From Flavobacteriales bacterium (lineage in GTDB: Bacteria > Bacteroidota > Bacteroidia > Flavobacteriales > JANQLC01), in the NCBI GenBank assembly GCA_028280815.1, contig JANQLC010000007.1:15037-79036 (forward strand): a DNA stretch of 64,000 nt, read 5' to 3'. Shown piece by piece: positions 4,636-63,875 of this stretch. Numbering within the stretch: the stretch's first letter is position 1; each line of letters opens with the position of its first letter. The notes beneath the pieces are model-generated. The model made no database searches and was not told the origin of the DNA. It saw only the letters and a list, made by a program, of their open reading frames with translations. A program made the translations under genes and the position numbers.

Positions 4636-4965
4636 AATCCCCGCGCAGATCCGGCGCCGTATCGACTAAAGACCCAACACCCAAAAACTGCAATCGGATT
4701 GCAAAAAATGGCTGAGGGGTGAATCAAAAAGTGGAATGGGAAAATCACCGAGGGAAAAACGCGACAAATACACCGTGTCAAGGGCATGTAACCCTAGAAT
4801 AAATCCCAGAGAAGCGGAGAATCTTCAAACCGATACCCTATACCAGAAGACCCGATAAAAACAGCTGCCCCAAGCACAGCAGCTGTAAAAGCAAACCGGC
4901 TGAGAAAGACCGGGTTCTGATTTAAATCCATACCTTTACAAAAAACTTTAAAGTCCCTTTAAAAT

Positions 4966-6965: not shown

Positions 6966-7044
6966 GTTCCACGCTACCAGCCCTGTATGGATTGCGACAA
7001 TTTATAGGCGACATCGTCCCAATGCCAGCCTTTCTTATATCGAG

Positions 7045-7742
7045 CCGAGAAAAGTAAGCCCCGCTTTCAAATCGTCAAACGGAAATAAAAAAGGAATACC
7101 CATCTATAAAACCAACTCAAAAGGACAAAGACAAAGGATAAGCCTTTCAGACCGCCAACCGGAAACAAAGAATAAATCTCCTTTTTAAAGCATCATATGA
7201 GATAAAAAACCAATACCTGCCTTTCAGGCTGAGCTGCAGGATTAAATGCGAAAAAATACGACACCCCCTTTCGATCATCCCGTAGAGATAAAGGCCAAAG
7301 AAACAATTCCGCGCTTCTTAACCCGCCATGCACAGCAAAAAGCAAGCCCTTTTCCAAATCGATTTGCCGCCCTTGTAGCCATCACCCAAGATACTGTAAA
7401 ATATGCCCGAAGTAACTGCGCGACAAGGCTACCACAGCCTCAGACAAAACCAAAGAAATGTAGTCCCCCTTTCCCAATCAACAACCGAGAGCGAGAGGTG
7501 AGAAAAATGAGAGTCAAGCTGTAAACCCTCACAAAGGCGCAAAAGCAAGAGCACAAGGCTGAATTTGCAGCATGAACCTTAGAAACGACAAAAAATACGG
7601 TATGCGTTTAGACTCATTCCATAGAGATAAAACGAAGAAACAAGGCTTTTAAGTGATCTCACACAGCACAAACATAAAGAATGAGGCCAAGGCATCCAGA
7701 CTGATCCCAGTTTTCGTCTCTGAGCCCCATGCCGTACCGCAG
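7045..7742. repeat. Intergenic array of degenerate ~40-45-bp units (A-run / GC core / T-run / YAGACC tail), A+C-rich on the + strand
   Basis: Example units: CAAAGGATAAGCCTTTCAGACCGCCAACCGG (7132-7162) and AAACAAAGAATAAATCTCCTTTTT (7163-7186). It belongs to the same family as 24996-25480 and 56060-56510. There is no credible ORF. Confidence 0.6.
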
Positions 7743-12269: not shown

Positions 12270-12420
12270 CCTTTTTTGTATTCGCCTGCGCATGGCATGT
12301 GAAGAAAGGGCGTTATTTTTTTGTGCTCAACCTTTTGGCGTGGTTAAGAAAAGAGGCCTATCTTTTGGATTTGCCCTATATGTGGCGTTTTGAAAAGCCA
12401 GCCTTATTCTTTTGCGTTTA
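12270..12420. repeat. Copies of the intergenic unit in G+T orientation
   Basis: GAAAGGGCGTTATTTTTTTG (12304-12323), AAGAAAAGAGGCCTATCTTTTGG (12346-12368) and GAAAAGCCAGCCTTATTCTTTTG (12392-12414). Confidence 0.5.
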
Positions 12421-12545
12421 TCACTGCTGTGCTTCAATGTAGCTCAGTGCCGATGGCGTTTGGTGTACTTAGGCGTTGGCGTGGATTGTAAAAAATGGGA
12501 GGATCGATTGGGATTTTCGCAGCATCTAATATGGGGTAGGTCTAA

Positions 12546-24995: not shown

Positions 24996-25480
24996 GAACG
25001 AAAAATAAAGCCGGTCTTCAGGCCGTCAAAGGAGAAAAATAACGCCTCTTTTTTAAATCCCCACGGACAAATGCAAAAGAATAAGGGCGGATTTTCACAA
25101 CAACCCCATAGGAGCAAAAGGCAAGCCTCCTTTTTTAGACCACCGACCGGGAAAAAACAACGCTCCCTTTTTTGATGAACTACAACGGGGAATACAGTGC
25201 GACGAGTACCTTTTTTAACCACTGCCCAGGATCGAACACCAAAGGATAAAGCCGATTTTTTGACGGCCACATACGTAAAAACCCGAGAGAAACAAGTCTC
25301 CTTTTCAAAACGACAAACAGGGAAAAATAAGGCTGGACTTTTGGCAAAGGCGGAGAAATGATATCTGTCTTTCAAACCGGCTCACACGAGATGAAAACAA
25401 AAGAGCCATTCCGGCTTTTCAGACCGTCTCTATATGGAAGTACAAGGGGATAAGCGCAGCTTTCAGATTCCCTCATCTCA
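24996..25480. repeat. Array of ~12 degenerate ~40-bp units (A-run / GC core / T-run / variable tail), A+C-rich on the + strand
   Basis: Unit cores lie at 25001-25020, 25034-25054, 25075-25095, 25116-25136, 25152-25173, 25241-25261, 25322-25342 and 25413-25430. There is no conserved exact repeat and no credible ORF. Confidence 0.65.
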
Positions 25481-40845: not shown

Positions 40846-41066
40846 TAAATTTACCTAATTTTAAAGGTAGGCAAGTGCAAAGGCTTGCGCAGGAAATGTA
40901 TCGTTCAGCTGGCTTGGGTTTTAATCCTATGTGATTGGGCTATCACTGTGAAGGTGAAGGCTTCGGATGTAAAAATCTCGCTATCCTTGGATTGGGTTTT
41001 AAGTATATGTGATGTCGCAAGTGGGTGGGATTCGATTCGCTTTTCCACAGTGCTTTAAACCGAGAT

Positions 41067-41549
41067 ATGAAGCGGCGTCAGGTCATTACCTATACCGAAT
41101 ACCGATCTCTTTCAGAATTGGGTGAAAACATGCAGCGTCTCTTTAAGCGTGCCTTAAAGGTACAACGGGATGCTTATGCGCCTTATTCCAAATTTAAGGT
41201 AGGCGCTGCAGTCCGCCTCGAAGGCGGTCAGATCCTGTGCGGGAGTAACCAGGAGAACGCCGTTTATCCGGTGGGGCTATGCGCAGAGCGCGTAGCCATT
41301 TTTCAGGCTGGTGCGCTGTACCCCGATGTGCGCATATGCGATCTGGTCATACTGGCCGGCGGTGAACGCGCCGCGAACAATCGGCCTGTACCCCCTTGTG
41401 GAAGTTGTAGACAAGCCATAGCTGAATACGAGTGCCGGCAGGGATATCCCATTCGGATCGCCTTTGGTGGAGCGGATGGGGGGGCCATAATAGAAGTGAG
41501 GACGGTTGCGGGTCTGCTGCCCTTTGGCTTTTCAAAAGCCTTCTTGTAA
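41067..41549 (+). CDS. cdd: Cytidine deaminase
   Basis: Zinc motifs are CAERVA and PCGSCRQ. The start at the internal Met (41067) is preferred. Confidence 0.85.
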   Translation: MKRRQVITYTEYRSLSELGENMQRLFKRALKVQRDAYAPYSKFKVGAAVRLEGGQILCGSNQENAVYPVGLCAERVAIFQAGALYPDVRICDLVILAGGERAANNRPVPPCGSCRQAIAEYECRQGYPIRIAFGGADGGAIIEVRTVAGLLPFGFSKAFL

Positions 41550-44067: not shown

Positions 44068-44259
44068 ATGAATACAGGTACAGTAAAATTCTTTAACAAG
44101 ACCAAAGGTTTTGGTTTTATTAAAGATCAGGAGTCCGATCAAGAGTACTTTGTCCATGTTACCGGCCTGATAGATGAGATCGGTGATGGGGATGAGGTGA
44201 CTTTTGAGCTTCAAGAAGGAAAAAAAGGATTGAATGCAGTAAATGTTCGCCAAGCGTGA
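44068..44259 (+). CDS. Cold-shock protein (CspA family)
   Basis: 63 aa from the internal Met: MNTGTVKFFNKTKGFGFI..YFVHV (RNP1/RNP2 motifs). Confidence 0.9.
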   Translation: MNTGTVKFFNKTKGFGFIKDQESDQEYFVHVTGLIDEIGDGDEVTFELQEGKKGLNAVNVRQA

Positions 44260-44284
44260 TCGCTTGCTGCAGCAATGAATTTTT

Positions 44285-44310
44285 GGGCCTCGCTTAGCGA
44301 GGCTTTTTTT
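44285..44310 (+). terminator. Rho-independent terminator of the csp gene
   Basis: GCCTCGC (44287-44293), a TTA loop and GCGAGGC (44297-44303), followed by T7 (44304-44310). Confidence 0.65.
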
Positions 44311-46140
44311 GTCCTTGCCCCCTTGTGCAGGCTTGAGCGCTCGGTCTCGTTTTCTCAGCCTTGGGTTTTTTACGTTTGTCTCTCATTCAATTGGCTTGGG
44401 GGATTTGGGGTGCTTGCACGGATGCATTATTGCGTTGGTTGGCGGTGACGTGGCTGGGTTGAGTTGCTGCGTTGGCGGTTGGTTAGCTGTGCTGGCTTGA
44501 ATGGGGTTGATCGGGTTGCGCTGTTGGGTTATTAAGTTGGTTTTTTGACGCTGTTGGTGTGCTTGGGTTGCTTTCTCGGCTTTGTCTTTTTGTGCGCGCT
44601 TCAAGGCTTGGGCCTGCTCTCCAATGCTGTTTGGCAGTTGAAAAGGAACTGTTTTTTCCGCTGGGCTGATCGGCTTTGTCGTGTATTTGTCTCGGCAGGC
44701 CTTTTTACCGTGATCGGTGGGGCAGCAGCTGTAATGCGCTGATTTGAGGGGCGTCCCCGTTTTTTGGTGCCCTCTCTTTGTGGCGGTTAAAAAGAGGGGT
44801 TTGTCCTTTTAAGCTCCGTCTTCTCGCGATCGTTGGAAAGCGGAAATTGCTTTTTGTTTTGGCTTTGCGTGTGTGGGTTCTCAGCGGGTTTGGGCTGCTT
44901 GGGTAGCGGTTGCTTCGACGACTGAGTAGGGCTGGATCGTCGAATGGGTTGGAGCGGTTGGTCTGTCCAGTGAATTGGCTTGTCGCTGTGATGGATTGAG
45001 TGCGTGGATGGATTGGGACTACTCGATTGATTCAGTGAGCTGCTGCGTGGGCCTGTGGGTTGGATTGAGCAGCTCGGATGGGTTTGTCCTTCGTCGAGCG
45101 CCTTGCATGGGATCTTTCTACAGTTGATGTAGGTGGCTTTTGGACTGCGTTGTTTTCCCCCTTCCTTATGCCGGGTTTTTTGCATTTGTCTTTTCTGTGA
45201 TGGGCGTATGCGGGTTTGTCGGTTGGGGGCTGTCATTCCGCTGCGTTTGCATAGGAGGTGCTTTGGTATTGTTCCTGTCGGGATTTTGCATTTGTCTTTT
45301 CTGCGATGGGTGTAAGTGGCTTTTGGGCTTCTCGTTTTTTGTCCCTTGTCCCCATTCGGGCTTTTCGCATGGTTTCGTACAATTTGTGTAGGCAGATTTT
45401 GGTTTCCCTGGCTTGGATTGGGTGCGCGGATGGGTTGGTGGGTTCAGTGAGTCGGTTTGTCGTTGTGGTTGATTGGGCGGGTGAAGGGGTTGACTTATTC
45501 AGTGGGTTGGATTGTTTGAGCTGCTTGGTTTGGTGGGTTGTTGTGATGGGTTCATCGGTGCATGGGTTTGGAAAAGGCGGTTTCTCTTTTGGTCTTTCCC
45601 TTTTGTGACTGTTTGGGATGCTGCACGTATTTCCCCCTTCTCGTTTGAGTTGGTTTGAAATCGCAAAAGCACGACTGTGTCCTCACCATTGAATGGGGGT
45701 TGAAAAAGTGGACGTTGTTTTTTATTTTGTCTTGTGTGGTGTCTTGAGAAGAGGGTGTGACTCTTTTGTCTCTGCCTTGCATGAGACATCTGATCCCTTA
45801 TTCTTTTGTCCTTGTTATCGATCACCAATTTAAAGGAGGAGGAGGTTTGTTTTTATCTCTCGGAGCGGGCCAAAGCTCATGAGCGTTTTTGTCTTTGCCT
45901 CTATGAGACCGTTTGAAAGCGCTGTTTTGTCTTTTGGTGTTCATCGTTGAGACCTTGAAAGGTAGGAGTTATCCTTTGCTTTTGTCCTTTTTTGGGGTGA
46001 GAAGAGCTGTTTTTCTGCGCTCGTCCTTTGTTGGTACTCATCCTGTCTCGCAGTTTAAAAAGCGCGTGCTATCCTTTGTTTTTATCCTTTTTGAGTCGGC
46101 GATCGGCTTTTCGCTCGTCTGGAGTCGACATCTCAGGCGA
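44311..46140. repeat. 1.8-kb gene-free, G+T-skewed tract of nested degenerate repeats
   Basis: TTTGTC occurs 18 times on the + strand, and I saw no GACAAA on the + strand. Near-identical ~37-nt copies lie at 45172-45208 and 45278-45314. There are three GGNTTG-rich blocks. Reverse-complement copies of the ~40-bp unit lie at 45880-46100. Confidence 0.7.
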
Positions 46141-46509
46141 TCAGTTTGCAAAGGCTACTTTGTAGACCGTAGCCACGGCCGACCTTTCACACATTTGAAC
46201 CATTACGTAAAGCGAATCTTGTGCTATTCTATAAGTTTTACAAGGTGCTTTTCGCGGCTCGCTCTGGGAGAAGTCCACCCTACCCCGGTGCAAGATTTGT
46301 TGGACGCGAACCCGGTCTAACCCCAGTGCGCGCATCTGTAGCTCGGCTTCTCGGCTGTAGCGGATTTTTCGTTCGCTCAAGTGTTGCAGCACCCGAGCAT
46401 TGGGAAAGTAAGCACAACGCATAGGGCGATCGCCGAAAAATAGGAATACGAGAACGCATCCCAGGCTTAAGCCCAGGGTGTAAAACCCGAGTCTTTTTGA
46501 GAATCGCAT
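46141..46509 (-). CDS. DUF4258-like small membrane-anchored protein
   Basis: 122 aa with an N-terminal TM helix. The C-terminal part resembles DUF4258 (..SERKIRYS..ILHRGRV..CKTYRI..LYVMV..VATVYKV). Its ATG abuts the ald stop, which suggests operon coupling. Confidence 0.6.
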   Translation of the reverse strand: MRFSKRLGFYTLGLSLGCVLVFLFFGDRPMRCAYFPNARVLQHLSERKIRYSREAELQMRALGLDRVRVQQILHRGRVDFSQSEPRKAPCKTYRIAQDSLYVMVQMCERSAVATVYKVAFAN

Positions 46510-47709
46510 TTAAGGGATCGGTAAATTGATGTCGGTAAAAGCTAGTTGAAACCATTGACTGACTTCGCGTTTGGTCATTACGCCCTTGTATAGATAAACC
46601 CCTTCTCGCAGTCCTGTATTGCATTTTAGTGCGTTTTCAAGGCCACCTTTCTCGCCCATTTCCATTGCGCAATTTAAGAGGTAATGGCTCATGGCCATGC
46701 TGGCTGTACGCGATACGCGCGATGCGATATTGGTCACACCGTAGTGAATGACATCGTGTTTGACAAAGGTGGGGTAGTCGTGTGTGGTCACTTCTGAGGT
46801 CTCAAATGTACCCCCGTGGTCCATGCTCACATCTATGGTAACCGCGCCGGCTTTCATTTTCTTAACGGTGTCTTCACCGACTAGAACGGGTGTCCTCTCA
46901 CCGCCTGTGCCTATGGCTCCGATGGCTGCATCGCAGTGCTGCAGCGCCTTTGTCAGGCGGTTGGGGTCGATCAGTGAAGTGAAGATGCGGTGATTTAGGT
47001 TGCTTTGCAGCTTTCTCAGATTGGCTGTGGAGTGGTCGAAAACCTTAATTGAAGCTCCTAAGCCCAAAGCGGATTTGGCGGCGAATTCGCCTACTGTACC
47101 CGCACCGAGGATGACCACTTCAGCCGGTGCGATGCCCGCTGCGCTTCCCAACAAGATTCCGTTTCCCTCGTTGATGTTACTCATCAGCTCTCCAGCGATT
47201 AGCGTGGATGTGGTACCGACTACCTCACCGATCGTTCGGACGATGGATAAGTCACCTGTTTCATCCGCGATGAAATCCATTGCGGTAGCCGTAGTTTTTT
47301 TCTGTGCCAATCCTTTAAAATACGCTTGGGTACAGGTGCTGATTTGCAATGCGGATAGCAAGGTGCTCCGCTCCGCCAGCATTTGAATTTCCGCTTCTGC
47401 AGGGGGGTCGATTTTTAAGACGACGGGTTGTGAAAAGACTGCTGCGGTTTCGTGTGATATCTCTGCGCCGGCTTCGGCGTACTCGTGATCGGAATAGCGC
47501 GCCCCGGACCCAGCTCCGGATTCTACCAAGACTCCGTGGCCGTTGGCTGTTAAAACGGATACGGCATCGGGTGTCAGGCCGATGCGCTTCTCTTGGAAGT
47601 GCGATTCCCTGGGGAGGCCTATGCGGATCTTCTCTTTGCTATGGCCGACTTCAAGCCTCTCGGCCTGGGGTATCAGTTCTTTCTCAGAAAAGGGTAAAGC
47701 TGCTACCAT
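46510..47709 (-). CDS. Alanine dehydrogenase / PNT-family NAD(P)-dependent dehydrogenase
   Basis: 399 aa. It has the AlaDH/PNT N-terminal pattern (RIGLPRE..EKRIGLTP) and the Rossmann motif VVILGAGTVG. Confidence 0.75.
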   Translation of the reverse strand: MVAALPFSEKELIPQAERLEVGHSKEKIRIGLPRESHFQEKRIGLTPDAVSVLTANGHGVLVESGAGSGARYSDHEYAEAGAEISHETAAVFSQPVVLKIDPPAEAEIQMLAERSTLLSALQISTCTQAYFKGLAQKKTTATAMDFIADETGDLSIVRTIGEVVGTTSTLIAGELMSNINEGNGILLGSAAGIAPAEVVILGAGTVGEFAAKSALGLGASIKVFDHSTANLRKLQSNLNHRIFTSLIDPNRLTKALQHCDAAIGAIGTGGERTPVLVGEDTVKKMKAGAVTIDVSMDHGGTFETSEVTTHDYPTFVKHDVIHYGVTNIASRVSRTASMAMSHYLLNCAMEMGEKGGLENALKCNTGLREGVYLYKGVMTKREVSQWFQLAFTDINLPIP

Positions 47710-47711
47710 GG

Positions 47712-48125
47712 CTAGTCCTCAATGATTACTGTGCGCTGGTCTCGGTGGGTCGAGATGCGAATTTTTAAGCTGTTTTCGGGTAAGAGATCGGGTATTTTTT
47801 CAGGCCATTCCACCAAGCAAAATCCATCGCTGTAAAAATAGTCCTCGTATCCGATATCCAAAATCTCTCCTTCGGATTCAATGCGGTAGAAATCAAAGTG
47901 AAAAACCGGCCCTATCTCGGCTGAAAAGTACTCGTTTACCATTGAAAATGTAGGGCTACTGACCGAGTCTTCTACGTCGAGCAGCTGCAGTAAGGCCTTG
48001 ATAAAAGTCGTTTTCCCCGCACCCATTTCACCGTAAAAAAGCCATACTTTCCGAGCTGAAAAACGATCGATTAACCGCTTTCCGATGGCCTTTAAATCAG
48101 AGCGTGTTACATTTCTGTACTCCAA
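47712..48125 (-). CDS. tsaE: tRNA t6A37 biosynthesis ATPase TsaE
   Basis: 137 aa. It has the P-loop GEMGAGKTTF and SPTF..YHFDFYR motifs. Confidence 0.88.
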   Translation of the reverse strand: MEYRNVTRSDLKAIGKRLIDRFSARKVWLFYGEMGAGKTTFIKALLQLLDVEDSVSSPTFSMVNEYFSAEIGPVFHFDFYRIESEGEILDIGYEDYFYSDGFCLVEWPEKIPDLLPENSLKIRISTHRDQRTVIIED

Positions 48126-63684: not shown

Positions 63685-63875
63685 CATTTCTCTTCGCAGG
63701 GTGGCGAGCGGTTTATCCGAATAAGGCTTGTGATGGGGATGGGTTTCAGTGGTCAGGTCCCAATCCCAAGGCTTTTCTGAGGCGGTTTGAAAATGGAGGC
63801 TTAGGCTTTGTTCGCGTGCTGGGTTTCAGTGACCAAACTCCAATCACCGTCGTCAATCTCCTCAATTTTTCCGCC

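Follow-up and report, generated by a model that had tools for sequence, protein, structure and literature searches.

A tract of strand-polar, non-palindromic repeats between csp and the ald operon in an uncultured marine Flavobacteriales lineage, a putative Rho-dependent termination zone

The non-coding tract considered here occupies positions 44311-46140 of a 64,000-nucleotide stretch of Flavobacteriales DNA (contig JANQLC010000007.1; the whole stretch is hereafter the window), where it forms the spacer between two convergent transcription units, the csp gene on the + strand and the tsaE-ald-DUF4258 operon on the minus strand. The tract consists of strand-polar, non-palindromic, A+C-rich repeats that belong to a clade-specific superfamily; they expand and contract by unit-scale duplication and deletion, and also fill other gene gaps in this genome and in close relatives. 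It is a case of lineage-specific intergenic repeats of a non-palindromic, strand-polar and unstructured type. The informative strand is the minus strand, i.e. the sense strand of the ald operon, and we tentatively favour the reading that the tract is an untranslated 3' extension of this operon acting as a putative Rho-dependent termination and insulation zone. The flanking proteins place the host among uncultured marine Flavobacteriales, in a lineage for which public data contain very few relatives.

Composition and coding content of the tract

The first-pass annotation of this DNA, made from the letters alone, had described a gene-free, strand-polar and G+T-rich tract of 1.8 kb composed of nested degenerate repeats, and this description is borne out in each respect. 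Only short open reading frames (ORFs) occur in the six frames of the tract, none with a Pfam match, and an exhaustive phmmer search against 1.84 billion representatives returned only ORFs lying over homologous repeat tracts, together with one low-complexity match. The + strand is 70% G+T (38% T, 32% G, 18% C and 12% A over 1.76 kb), and the segment 44290-46051, with an A+C content of 0.30 on that strand, is by far the largest skewed segment in the window. Coding sequence makes up 84% of the window, and the tract alone accounts for 19% of its intergenic DNA.

It is highly improbable that the tract represents a decayed minus-strand gene for a Pro/Thr/Gln-rich low-complexity protein. The minus-strand frames are indeed rich in P, T, Q, N and K, with ORFs of up to 149 aa, but stops interrupt all frames, ORF lengths are as the T-poor composition predicts, the relatives described below carry no gene at the ald-csp position, and the Pfam and phmmer searches recovered no true gene. 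The earlier suggestion of debris from tandem duplication of a lost gene therefore stands only in part, in that duplication is evident, but what has been duplicated is a dispersed non-coding repeat and not a gene. Gene callers place spurious ORFs on such repeat tracts, and the 149-241-aa 'proteins' translated from them that public databases contain (P0124, P0125, P0127 and P0128) are probably spurious entries.

All 18 + strand positions at which the hexamer TTTGTC had been counted by hand proved exact, and this number exceeds the 2.4 +/- 1.5 copies expected from 2000 dinucleotide-preserving shuffles of the tract (shuffle maximum 9). No minus-strand copy is found inside the tract; however, whilst the absence of GACAAA from the + strand is real, the 'absolute strand polarity' that it had been taken to signify follows from composition, since GACAAA is likewise absent from the + strand in 92% of the shuffles, so that its absence is uninformative. 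Across the window TTTGTC is found 103 times on the two strands (38 +/- 7 expected), and the excess persists when the 18 copies of the tract are subtracted.

The tract is genuine sequence. An assembly artefact had been raised as a possibility, but independent contigs reproduce the tract at 99.5-100% identity: a Tara Oceans contig does so over 2076 nt at 99.5%, and Logan contigs over 1316 nt at 100%, this coverage extending leftwards to window position 44525, so that the last ~215 nt rest on the window alone. Polar repeats of this type break short-read assemblies. Two Logan contigs from independent assemblies (L015 and L016) both end at about 45285, within a copy of the 40-nt repeat described below, and contigs of the relatives often stop just past the genes that border arrays.

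Repeat architecture of the minus strand

Three kinds of building block can be distinguished on the minus strand (Table 1), namely A-rich units of ~45 nt, of which there are at least 11, modules of ~106 nt, and three C-rich, G-poor blocks. The A-rich units share the core motif G..AA.ACAAAAGAYAAG.CC...CTTTTCAA, which an iterated profile hidden Markov model (HMM) gives as aGgtgAAcACAAAAAGAcAAGcCCctCTTTTCA with a unit length of 40-47 nt; in the unit columns A stands at 60-93% across ~15 positions, followed by G, CC, a 3-4-nt spacer, TTTT (83-88%) and CAA. Within the tandem array the HMM matches start at 46056, 46000, 45955, 45913, 45837, 45744, 45703 and 45569, whilst the three further units interleave with the sole moderately folded part of the minus-strand RNA.

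The ~106-nt modules contain a 40-nt pair (45178-45217 and 45284-45323, 88% identical) that corresponds to the two near-identical ~37-nt copies noticed in the first-pass annotation, and the C-rich blocks match what had been seen on the other strand as three GGNTTG-rich blocks. The blocks are rich in CCAAYCCA-like words, with AACCCA and CAACCC among the most over-represented hexamers. A higher-order period of ~430 bp had been proposed on the basis of alignment by eye; there is one significant degenerate duplication, at an offset of 477 (44956-45062 against 45433-45540, Smith-Waterman score 47 versus 22 +/- 3 in shuffles), but other repeat pairs are spaced at 106, 183, 352 and larger distances, and a single period is absent. 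Likewise the motif GGKTTCAGTG, for which five positions had been listed, is exact at only three (45440, 63742 and 63822; 0.84 expected), whereas 45041 and 45498 carry the partial form TTCAGTG. Tandem Repeats Finder reports only one tandem repeat in the tract, a 20-bp unit in two copies at 44457-44496, and no inverted repeat was detected in 44200-46200.

Folding of the minus-strand RNA and potential for Rho loading

Of the three explanations that accompanied the first description, a structured or C/A-rich minus-strand transcript, such as a 3' untranslated region of the ald operon, fits best, although the word 'structured' is contradicted by the predicted folds: RNA read from the tract's minus strand has a folding energy of -12.7 kcal/mol per 100 nt, compared with -24.9 for nine coding mRNAs (p = 6e-17). 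RNA from the + strand (-24.2 kcal/mol per 100 nt) is like ordinary mRNA. The C-rich blocks of the minus-strand RNA lie between -0 and -4 kcal/mol per 100 nt, and block 1 (-15.7 kcal/mol over 221 nt) is essentially unfolded and resembles a Rho loading site. Published criteria for such sites call for a 78-nt window with C/G >1 and cytosines spaced 11-13 nt apart (PMC6407284). On the minus strand of the tract 40% of windows qualify, and 16% do so with C/G >= 3 (maximum 7.0), compared with 0% on the + strand; elsewhere in the window only 0.01-0.3% of 78-nt windows reach C/G >= 3.

The minus strand of the tract has no called intrinsic terminator at any point, and none follows the ald operon. The stretch 44690-44850 of the minus-strand RNA is moderately folded (z = -1.1). 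This fold and the reversed csp hairpin (44285-44305) are the candidates for the polymerase pause site that a Rho-dependent terminator would have within ~150 nt downstream of its loading region; the csp hairpin, which lies where the tract ends on the csp side, is a G+C hairpin without a U-run when read on the minus strand, and neither candidate is statistically distinctive. The Bacteroidota -7 promoter motif TAnnTTTG, found just upstream of many genes elsewhere in the window, has a single match in the tract (44371, + strand), so that polymerases transcribing the tract most probably come from the flanks.

These properties suggest how the tract might act. Because the ald operon is without an intrinsic terminator, RNA polymerase leaving it would run into the tract, and readthrough would yield an RNA that is untranslated, nearly free of structure and much richer in C than in G, of the kind on which the termination factor Rho loads; the absence of coding signal suggests that this RNA would also be free of ribosomes. 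Since structure-free, C-rich RNA suits Rho loading, the tract would serve as a termination and insulation zone, its long and redundant array of potential sites halting ald-operon transcription before antisense entry into csp. The opposite strand, giving G+U-rich RNA, would offer no Rho site, and that strand would be shielded by the strong csp terminator. The tract shares with known Rho loading regions its position in untranslated RNA past a stop codon, a large excess of C over G, regular cytosine spacing and little structure; it differs from a single Rho loading site in being ~20x longer and in being built of recognisable repeat families.

The repeat units themselves show no fold. The suspected presence of GGAG/CTCC-type stems before the T-run was rejected, as individual units have a mean minimum free energy (MFE) z-score of -0.23 (n=52), RNAalifold finds no consensus structure, and a column-pair scan of 60 aligned units yields no nested covarying pairs. 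An array of weak intrinsic terminators was rejected likewise, the units having a T-run and no stem, and none being called on the minus strand. Promoters on the G+T-rich strand were also considered and dropped, given the one TAnnTTTG in the tract and a spacing within units that is unsuitable.

Canonical terminators are not enriched in the window (31, 26 and 32, versus 24.5, 25.4 and 26.5 in shuffles). The top-scoring terminator hairpins of the window include those at 44285 (csp), 56542 (TonB-dependent receptor, minus strand) and 41275 (+ strand, inside an ORF at 41025-41549).

A dispersed repeat family

The tract is not unique within the window: its units fill three other convergent gaps (Table 1). 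The first-pass claim that its right end consists of reverse-complement copies of a unit seen near 25 kb is confirmed, since a single HMM matches 24997-25464 on the + strand and, in the tract, 45569-46094 on the minus strand. Convergent gaps number eight among the 50 junctions of the window, and each of the four arrays lies in one of them (P = 3e-4). In relatives, arrays occupy the ald-csp gap, a gap 3' of an acyl-CoA dehydrogenase gene (co-directional) and the gap between the genes for the CCA-adding enzyme and a LysR protein. Relatives whose CCA-adding enzyme is 75-78% identical carry a tRNA gene in place of the array, and at distant Bacteroidota loci the unit HMM matches at chance level only.

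A second locus, on Tara contigs (L041 1200-2095 and L040 1-960), came to light through a phmmer search with the 149-aa minus-strand ORF. Here a ~1 kb A+C-rich tract separates a Sua5/YciO-like gene from a methylpurine-DNA glycosylase gene, and it shares with window 45009-45353 modules of 150-226 nt at 85-95% identity. The A+C-rich strand runs antisense to the genes on either side, and a terminator-like hairpin on that same strand (L040 994-1013) marks its end. This locus establishes that the modules are dispersed and obey no strict orientation rule: the rule that arrays lie sense-downstream of a gene is contradicted by it, and by weak antisense matches on a further contig (L039). The module copies suggest spread between loci by recombination or mobility.

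We also considered, as an unlikely but more far-reaching option, that the repeats constitute an undescribed clade-specific genetic system. In one version this could be a modular Rho-loading cassette, multiplied behind operons by a lineage poor in intrinsic terminators so as to insulate convergent genes. In another it could be a non-autonomous mobile element that has no inverted repeats or hairpins and passes from one intergenic site to another, as the 85-95% identical copies at two loci might indicate; an RNA intermediate is one conceivable route, a reverse-transcriptase gene adjoining groEL just upstream of the window.

Relatives and rate of evolution

The closest representative in GTDB is the metagenome-assembled genome JBAJNK01 (locus L001), whose ald is 85% identical to that of the window, and a second relative (L032) was found through the DUF4258 protein; scans of JGI metagenomes with DUF4258 and with ald gave no close relative. 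The order ald-DUF4258-gap-csp is kept in both, with gaps of 0.85 kb and 1.04 kb respectively that contain no called gene and show the same skew as the window tract. Their sense strands fold at -11.4 and -11.9 kcal/mol per 100 nt, and 21-22% of sense windows pass the Rho criteria, compared with 0-3% on the antisense strand, a milder form of the pattern seen in the window tract.

BLASTN detects no similarity between the window tract and the tracts of L001 and L032 beyond the flanking genes. Between L001 and L032 the tract is 78% identical overall and ~88-90% in good blocks, with indels of 26-45 nt, and four-fold degenerate sites are 92% identical in ald and 82% in DUF4258. As tract identity is close to that of four-fold sites, the tract appears to evolve at about the neutral rate, with gains and losses of unit size. 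The sole hint of constraint comes from the TTTTCAA columns of orthologous units, which carry one substitution in 51 sites versus ~11% elsewhere (p ~0.03), in a comparison that is post hoc and low-powered. Within the L001 tract, short insertions relative to L032 (11822-11848 and 12027-12056) contain the palindromes GGCACTGCGCTGCC and GTCAGCTGCGCTGAC; these may be a separate small hairpin element.

Such behaviour raises the possibility, which we regard as only slightly less probable than the termination reading, that the tract consists of functionless satellite-like repeats that arise by slippage, unequal exchange and ectopic recombination and persist where they do no harm, e.g. in convergent gaps and behind terminators, its Rho-friendly composition being incidental. 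Near-neutral substitution and unit-sized indels between L001 and L032 are as expected for such repeats, and so are a tract that cannot be aligned between the window and its relatives despite the syntenic gap, a tract length ranging from 0.85 to 1.83 kb, the restriction to a narrow clade, modules 85-95% identical at two loci with differing flanking-gene orientation, and units with neither structure nor covariation. Other observations are less readily accommodated. Core positions are 85-93% conserved while units have diverged by ~50% (a contrast that HMM ascertainment inflates), the TTTTCAA columns are depleted in substitutions, all three genomes retain the ald-csp array although its sequence has turned over completely, and a tract that takes up 19% of the intergenic DNA, where 84% of the window is coding, would be costly for pure junk.

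The tract might instead encode an independent long non-coding RNA, or a sponge in which the A-rich core and UUUUCAA are bound by a putative RNA-binding protein, e.g. an RRM protein, S1 or Csp. A repeated linear motif within unstructured RNA would suit this role, and at the second locus the A+C-rich strand, which cannot be read-through from a flanking gene, ends at its own hairpin. We nevertheless consider it unlikely, given that the minus strand of the tract has no promoter motif, that conservation does not rise above the neutral rate, and that no Rfam family is matched.

Assessment of the termination and insulation reading

Whilst the composition and folding of the minus-strand RNA argue for a putative Rho-dependent zone, our confidence in this reading remains limited, because minus-strand transcription is an assumption, 1.8 kb far exceeds what Rho needs, evolution appears near-neutral, the A+C-rich strand at the second locus is antisense to its neighbours, and the enrichment in convergent gaps is equally to be expected of harmless junk. 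Two further observations weigh on the same side: only 8% of windows in the array 3' of dnaK pass the Rho criteria, such that the 45-nt arrays alone pass weakly, and the relatives manage with ald-csp gaps of 0.85-1.0 kb that lack C-rich blocks.

Transcription ends are poorly mapped in Bacteroidota, and hairpin terminators occur at chance frequency in this window. If Rho does load on these repeats, they would be the first Rho termination zones that are built of repeats and recognisable from sequence, and would help to annotate where operons end in uncultured marine Flavobacteriales. If they are junk, a fairly compact marine genome tolerates satellite-like DNA on the kilobase scale.

Comparison with known elements

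The first-pass annotation had judged the tract not to be a clustered regularly interspaced short palindromic repeats (CRISPR) array, an rRNA or tRNA, an insertion sequence (IS) or a recognisable non-coding RNA, and searches of Rfam, Pfam and repeats uphold this. Searches of Rfam 15 at gathering scores and at E up to 10, with the tract, the dnaK 3' array and the L001 tract as queries, gave nothing relevant. A miniature inverted-repeat transposable element or IS element was rejected for want of inverted repeats and of a transposase domain, and a remnant group II intron lying behind terminators was dropped as no Rfam intron domain is found in the tract. A mimic of the 16S rRNA 3' end or anti-Shine-Dalgarno sequence was likewise set aside, the consensus before the T-run being AAG.CC... 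and not CCUCC.

Repetitive extragenic palindromic (REP) sequences and the bacterial interspersed mosaic elements (BIMEs) of enterobacteria are short, extragenic, often clustered, lineage-specific, and located 3' of genes or between convergent genes. The tract repeats resemble them in being extragenic and in lying 3' of genes in convergent gaps, as all four arrays of the window do. However, REPs are imperfectly palindromic and fold into stable hairpins, whereas the tract units are strictly strand-polar and have neither inverted repeat nor fold; with no inverted repeat in the region and a mean z-score close to zero, the palindrome or stem-loop that defines REP and BIME elements is lacking. With CRISPR arrays the tract shares a regular repeat spacing of ~40-47 nt in non-coding DNA, but CRISPR repeats are separated by unique spacers, whereas the tract units are contiguous and 50-88% alike, no cas genes lie nearby, and no Rfam CRISPR repeat reaches threshold. 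The short tandemly repeated repetitive (STRR) sequences of cyanobacteria, e.g. CCCCAAT heptamers, are intergenic, strand-asymmetric, C/A-rich tandem repeats with no assigned function (PMC2670836). The CCAAYCCA-like words of the C-rich blocks recall these, but the tract belongs to a different phylum, its units are far longer (45 and 106 nt), and there is no regular 7-bp period; a microsatellite of STRR type was rejected on the absence of ~7-bp head-to-tail copies, the one repeat reported by Tandem Repeats Finder having a 20-bp unit.

A DNA-level element that would absorb supercoiling between the convergent genes, whether curved DNA or an array of sites bound by a nucleoid protein or by gyrase (as in BIMEs), is in our view very unlikely. 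Location in a convergent gap and the regular unit spacing of ~40-45 bp would be in keeping with such an element; on the other hand, binding sites in double-stranded DNA need no strict strand polarity, palindromes are absent, and G-quadruplexes, which were considered for the + strand, are not enriched. The curved-DNA array suggested in the first-pass annotation fails in particular, as neither in the tract nor in any of the arrays does AA/TT power at 10-11 bp reach the shuffle maximum.

Table 1. Features of the tract, its flanks and the related arrays (window coordinates)
Feature	Position	Strand	Remarks
Whole non-coding tract	44311-46140	- (A+C-rich, taken as sense)	directly 3' of the tsaE-ald-DUF4258 operon
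Tandem array, ~8 A-rich units	45569-46094	-	HMM
C-rich, G-poor block 1	45375-45597	-	C 0.40-0.46, G 0.07-0.11, C/G up to 5.8-7
~106-nt modules	45129-45353	-	contain the 40-nt pair
C-rich, G-poor block 2	44867-45086	-	degenerate duplicate of block 1
Three more A-rich units	44834-44859, 44787-44817, 44641-44667 (span 44641-44859)	-	HMM
C-rich, G-poor block 3	44382-44582	-	C ~0.40, G 0.11-0.15
csp	44068-44259	+	Pfam CSD match
csp intrinsic terminator	44285-44305	+	strong; 9-bp stem, T7
tsaE-ald-DUF4258 operon	46141-48125	-	DUF4258 is the last gene, stop at 46141
Sister array, ~12 units	24997-25464	+	between dnaK (+) and CCA-adding enzyme gene (-)
Sister array, ~7 units	7041-7353	+	between AhpC/TSA-domain gene (+) and carbonic anhydrase gene (-)
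Sister array, 3 units	12300-12426	-	between GlnRS (+) and NifU (-)

Other observations

A small G+T-rich patch at 63700-63860, after a gene for a TPR protein, contains two copies of GGTTTCAGTG and, at 63787-63811, one weak reverse-strand match to the unit HMM (score ~4-5, E ~32); the patch may be the edge of another array running off the window. The reverse-transcriptase gene mentioned above (L039 1-931; Pfam RVT_1, 518 aa) follows directly on the groES-groEL terminator, on the same strand and ~9-10 kb upstream of the window start; lying behind a terminator in this way is typical of a class C group II intron. Finally, a 9-bp terminator-like hairpin is present on the minus strand at 4861-4886, in the gap between gldN and an AhpC-like gene, both of which are on the + strand, and this hairpin could be the sign of a small transcript, either antisense or independent.

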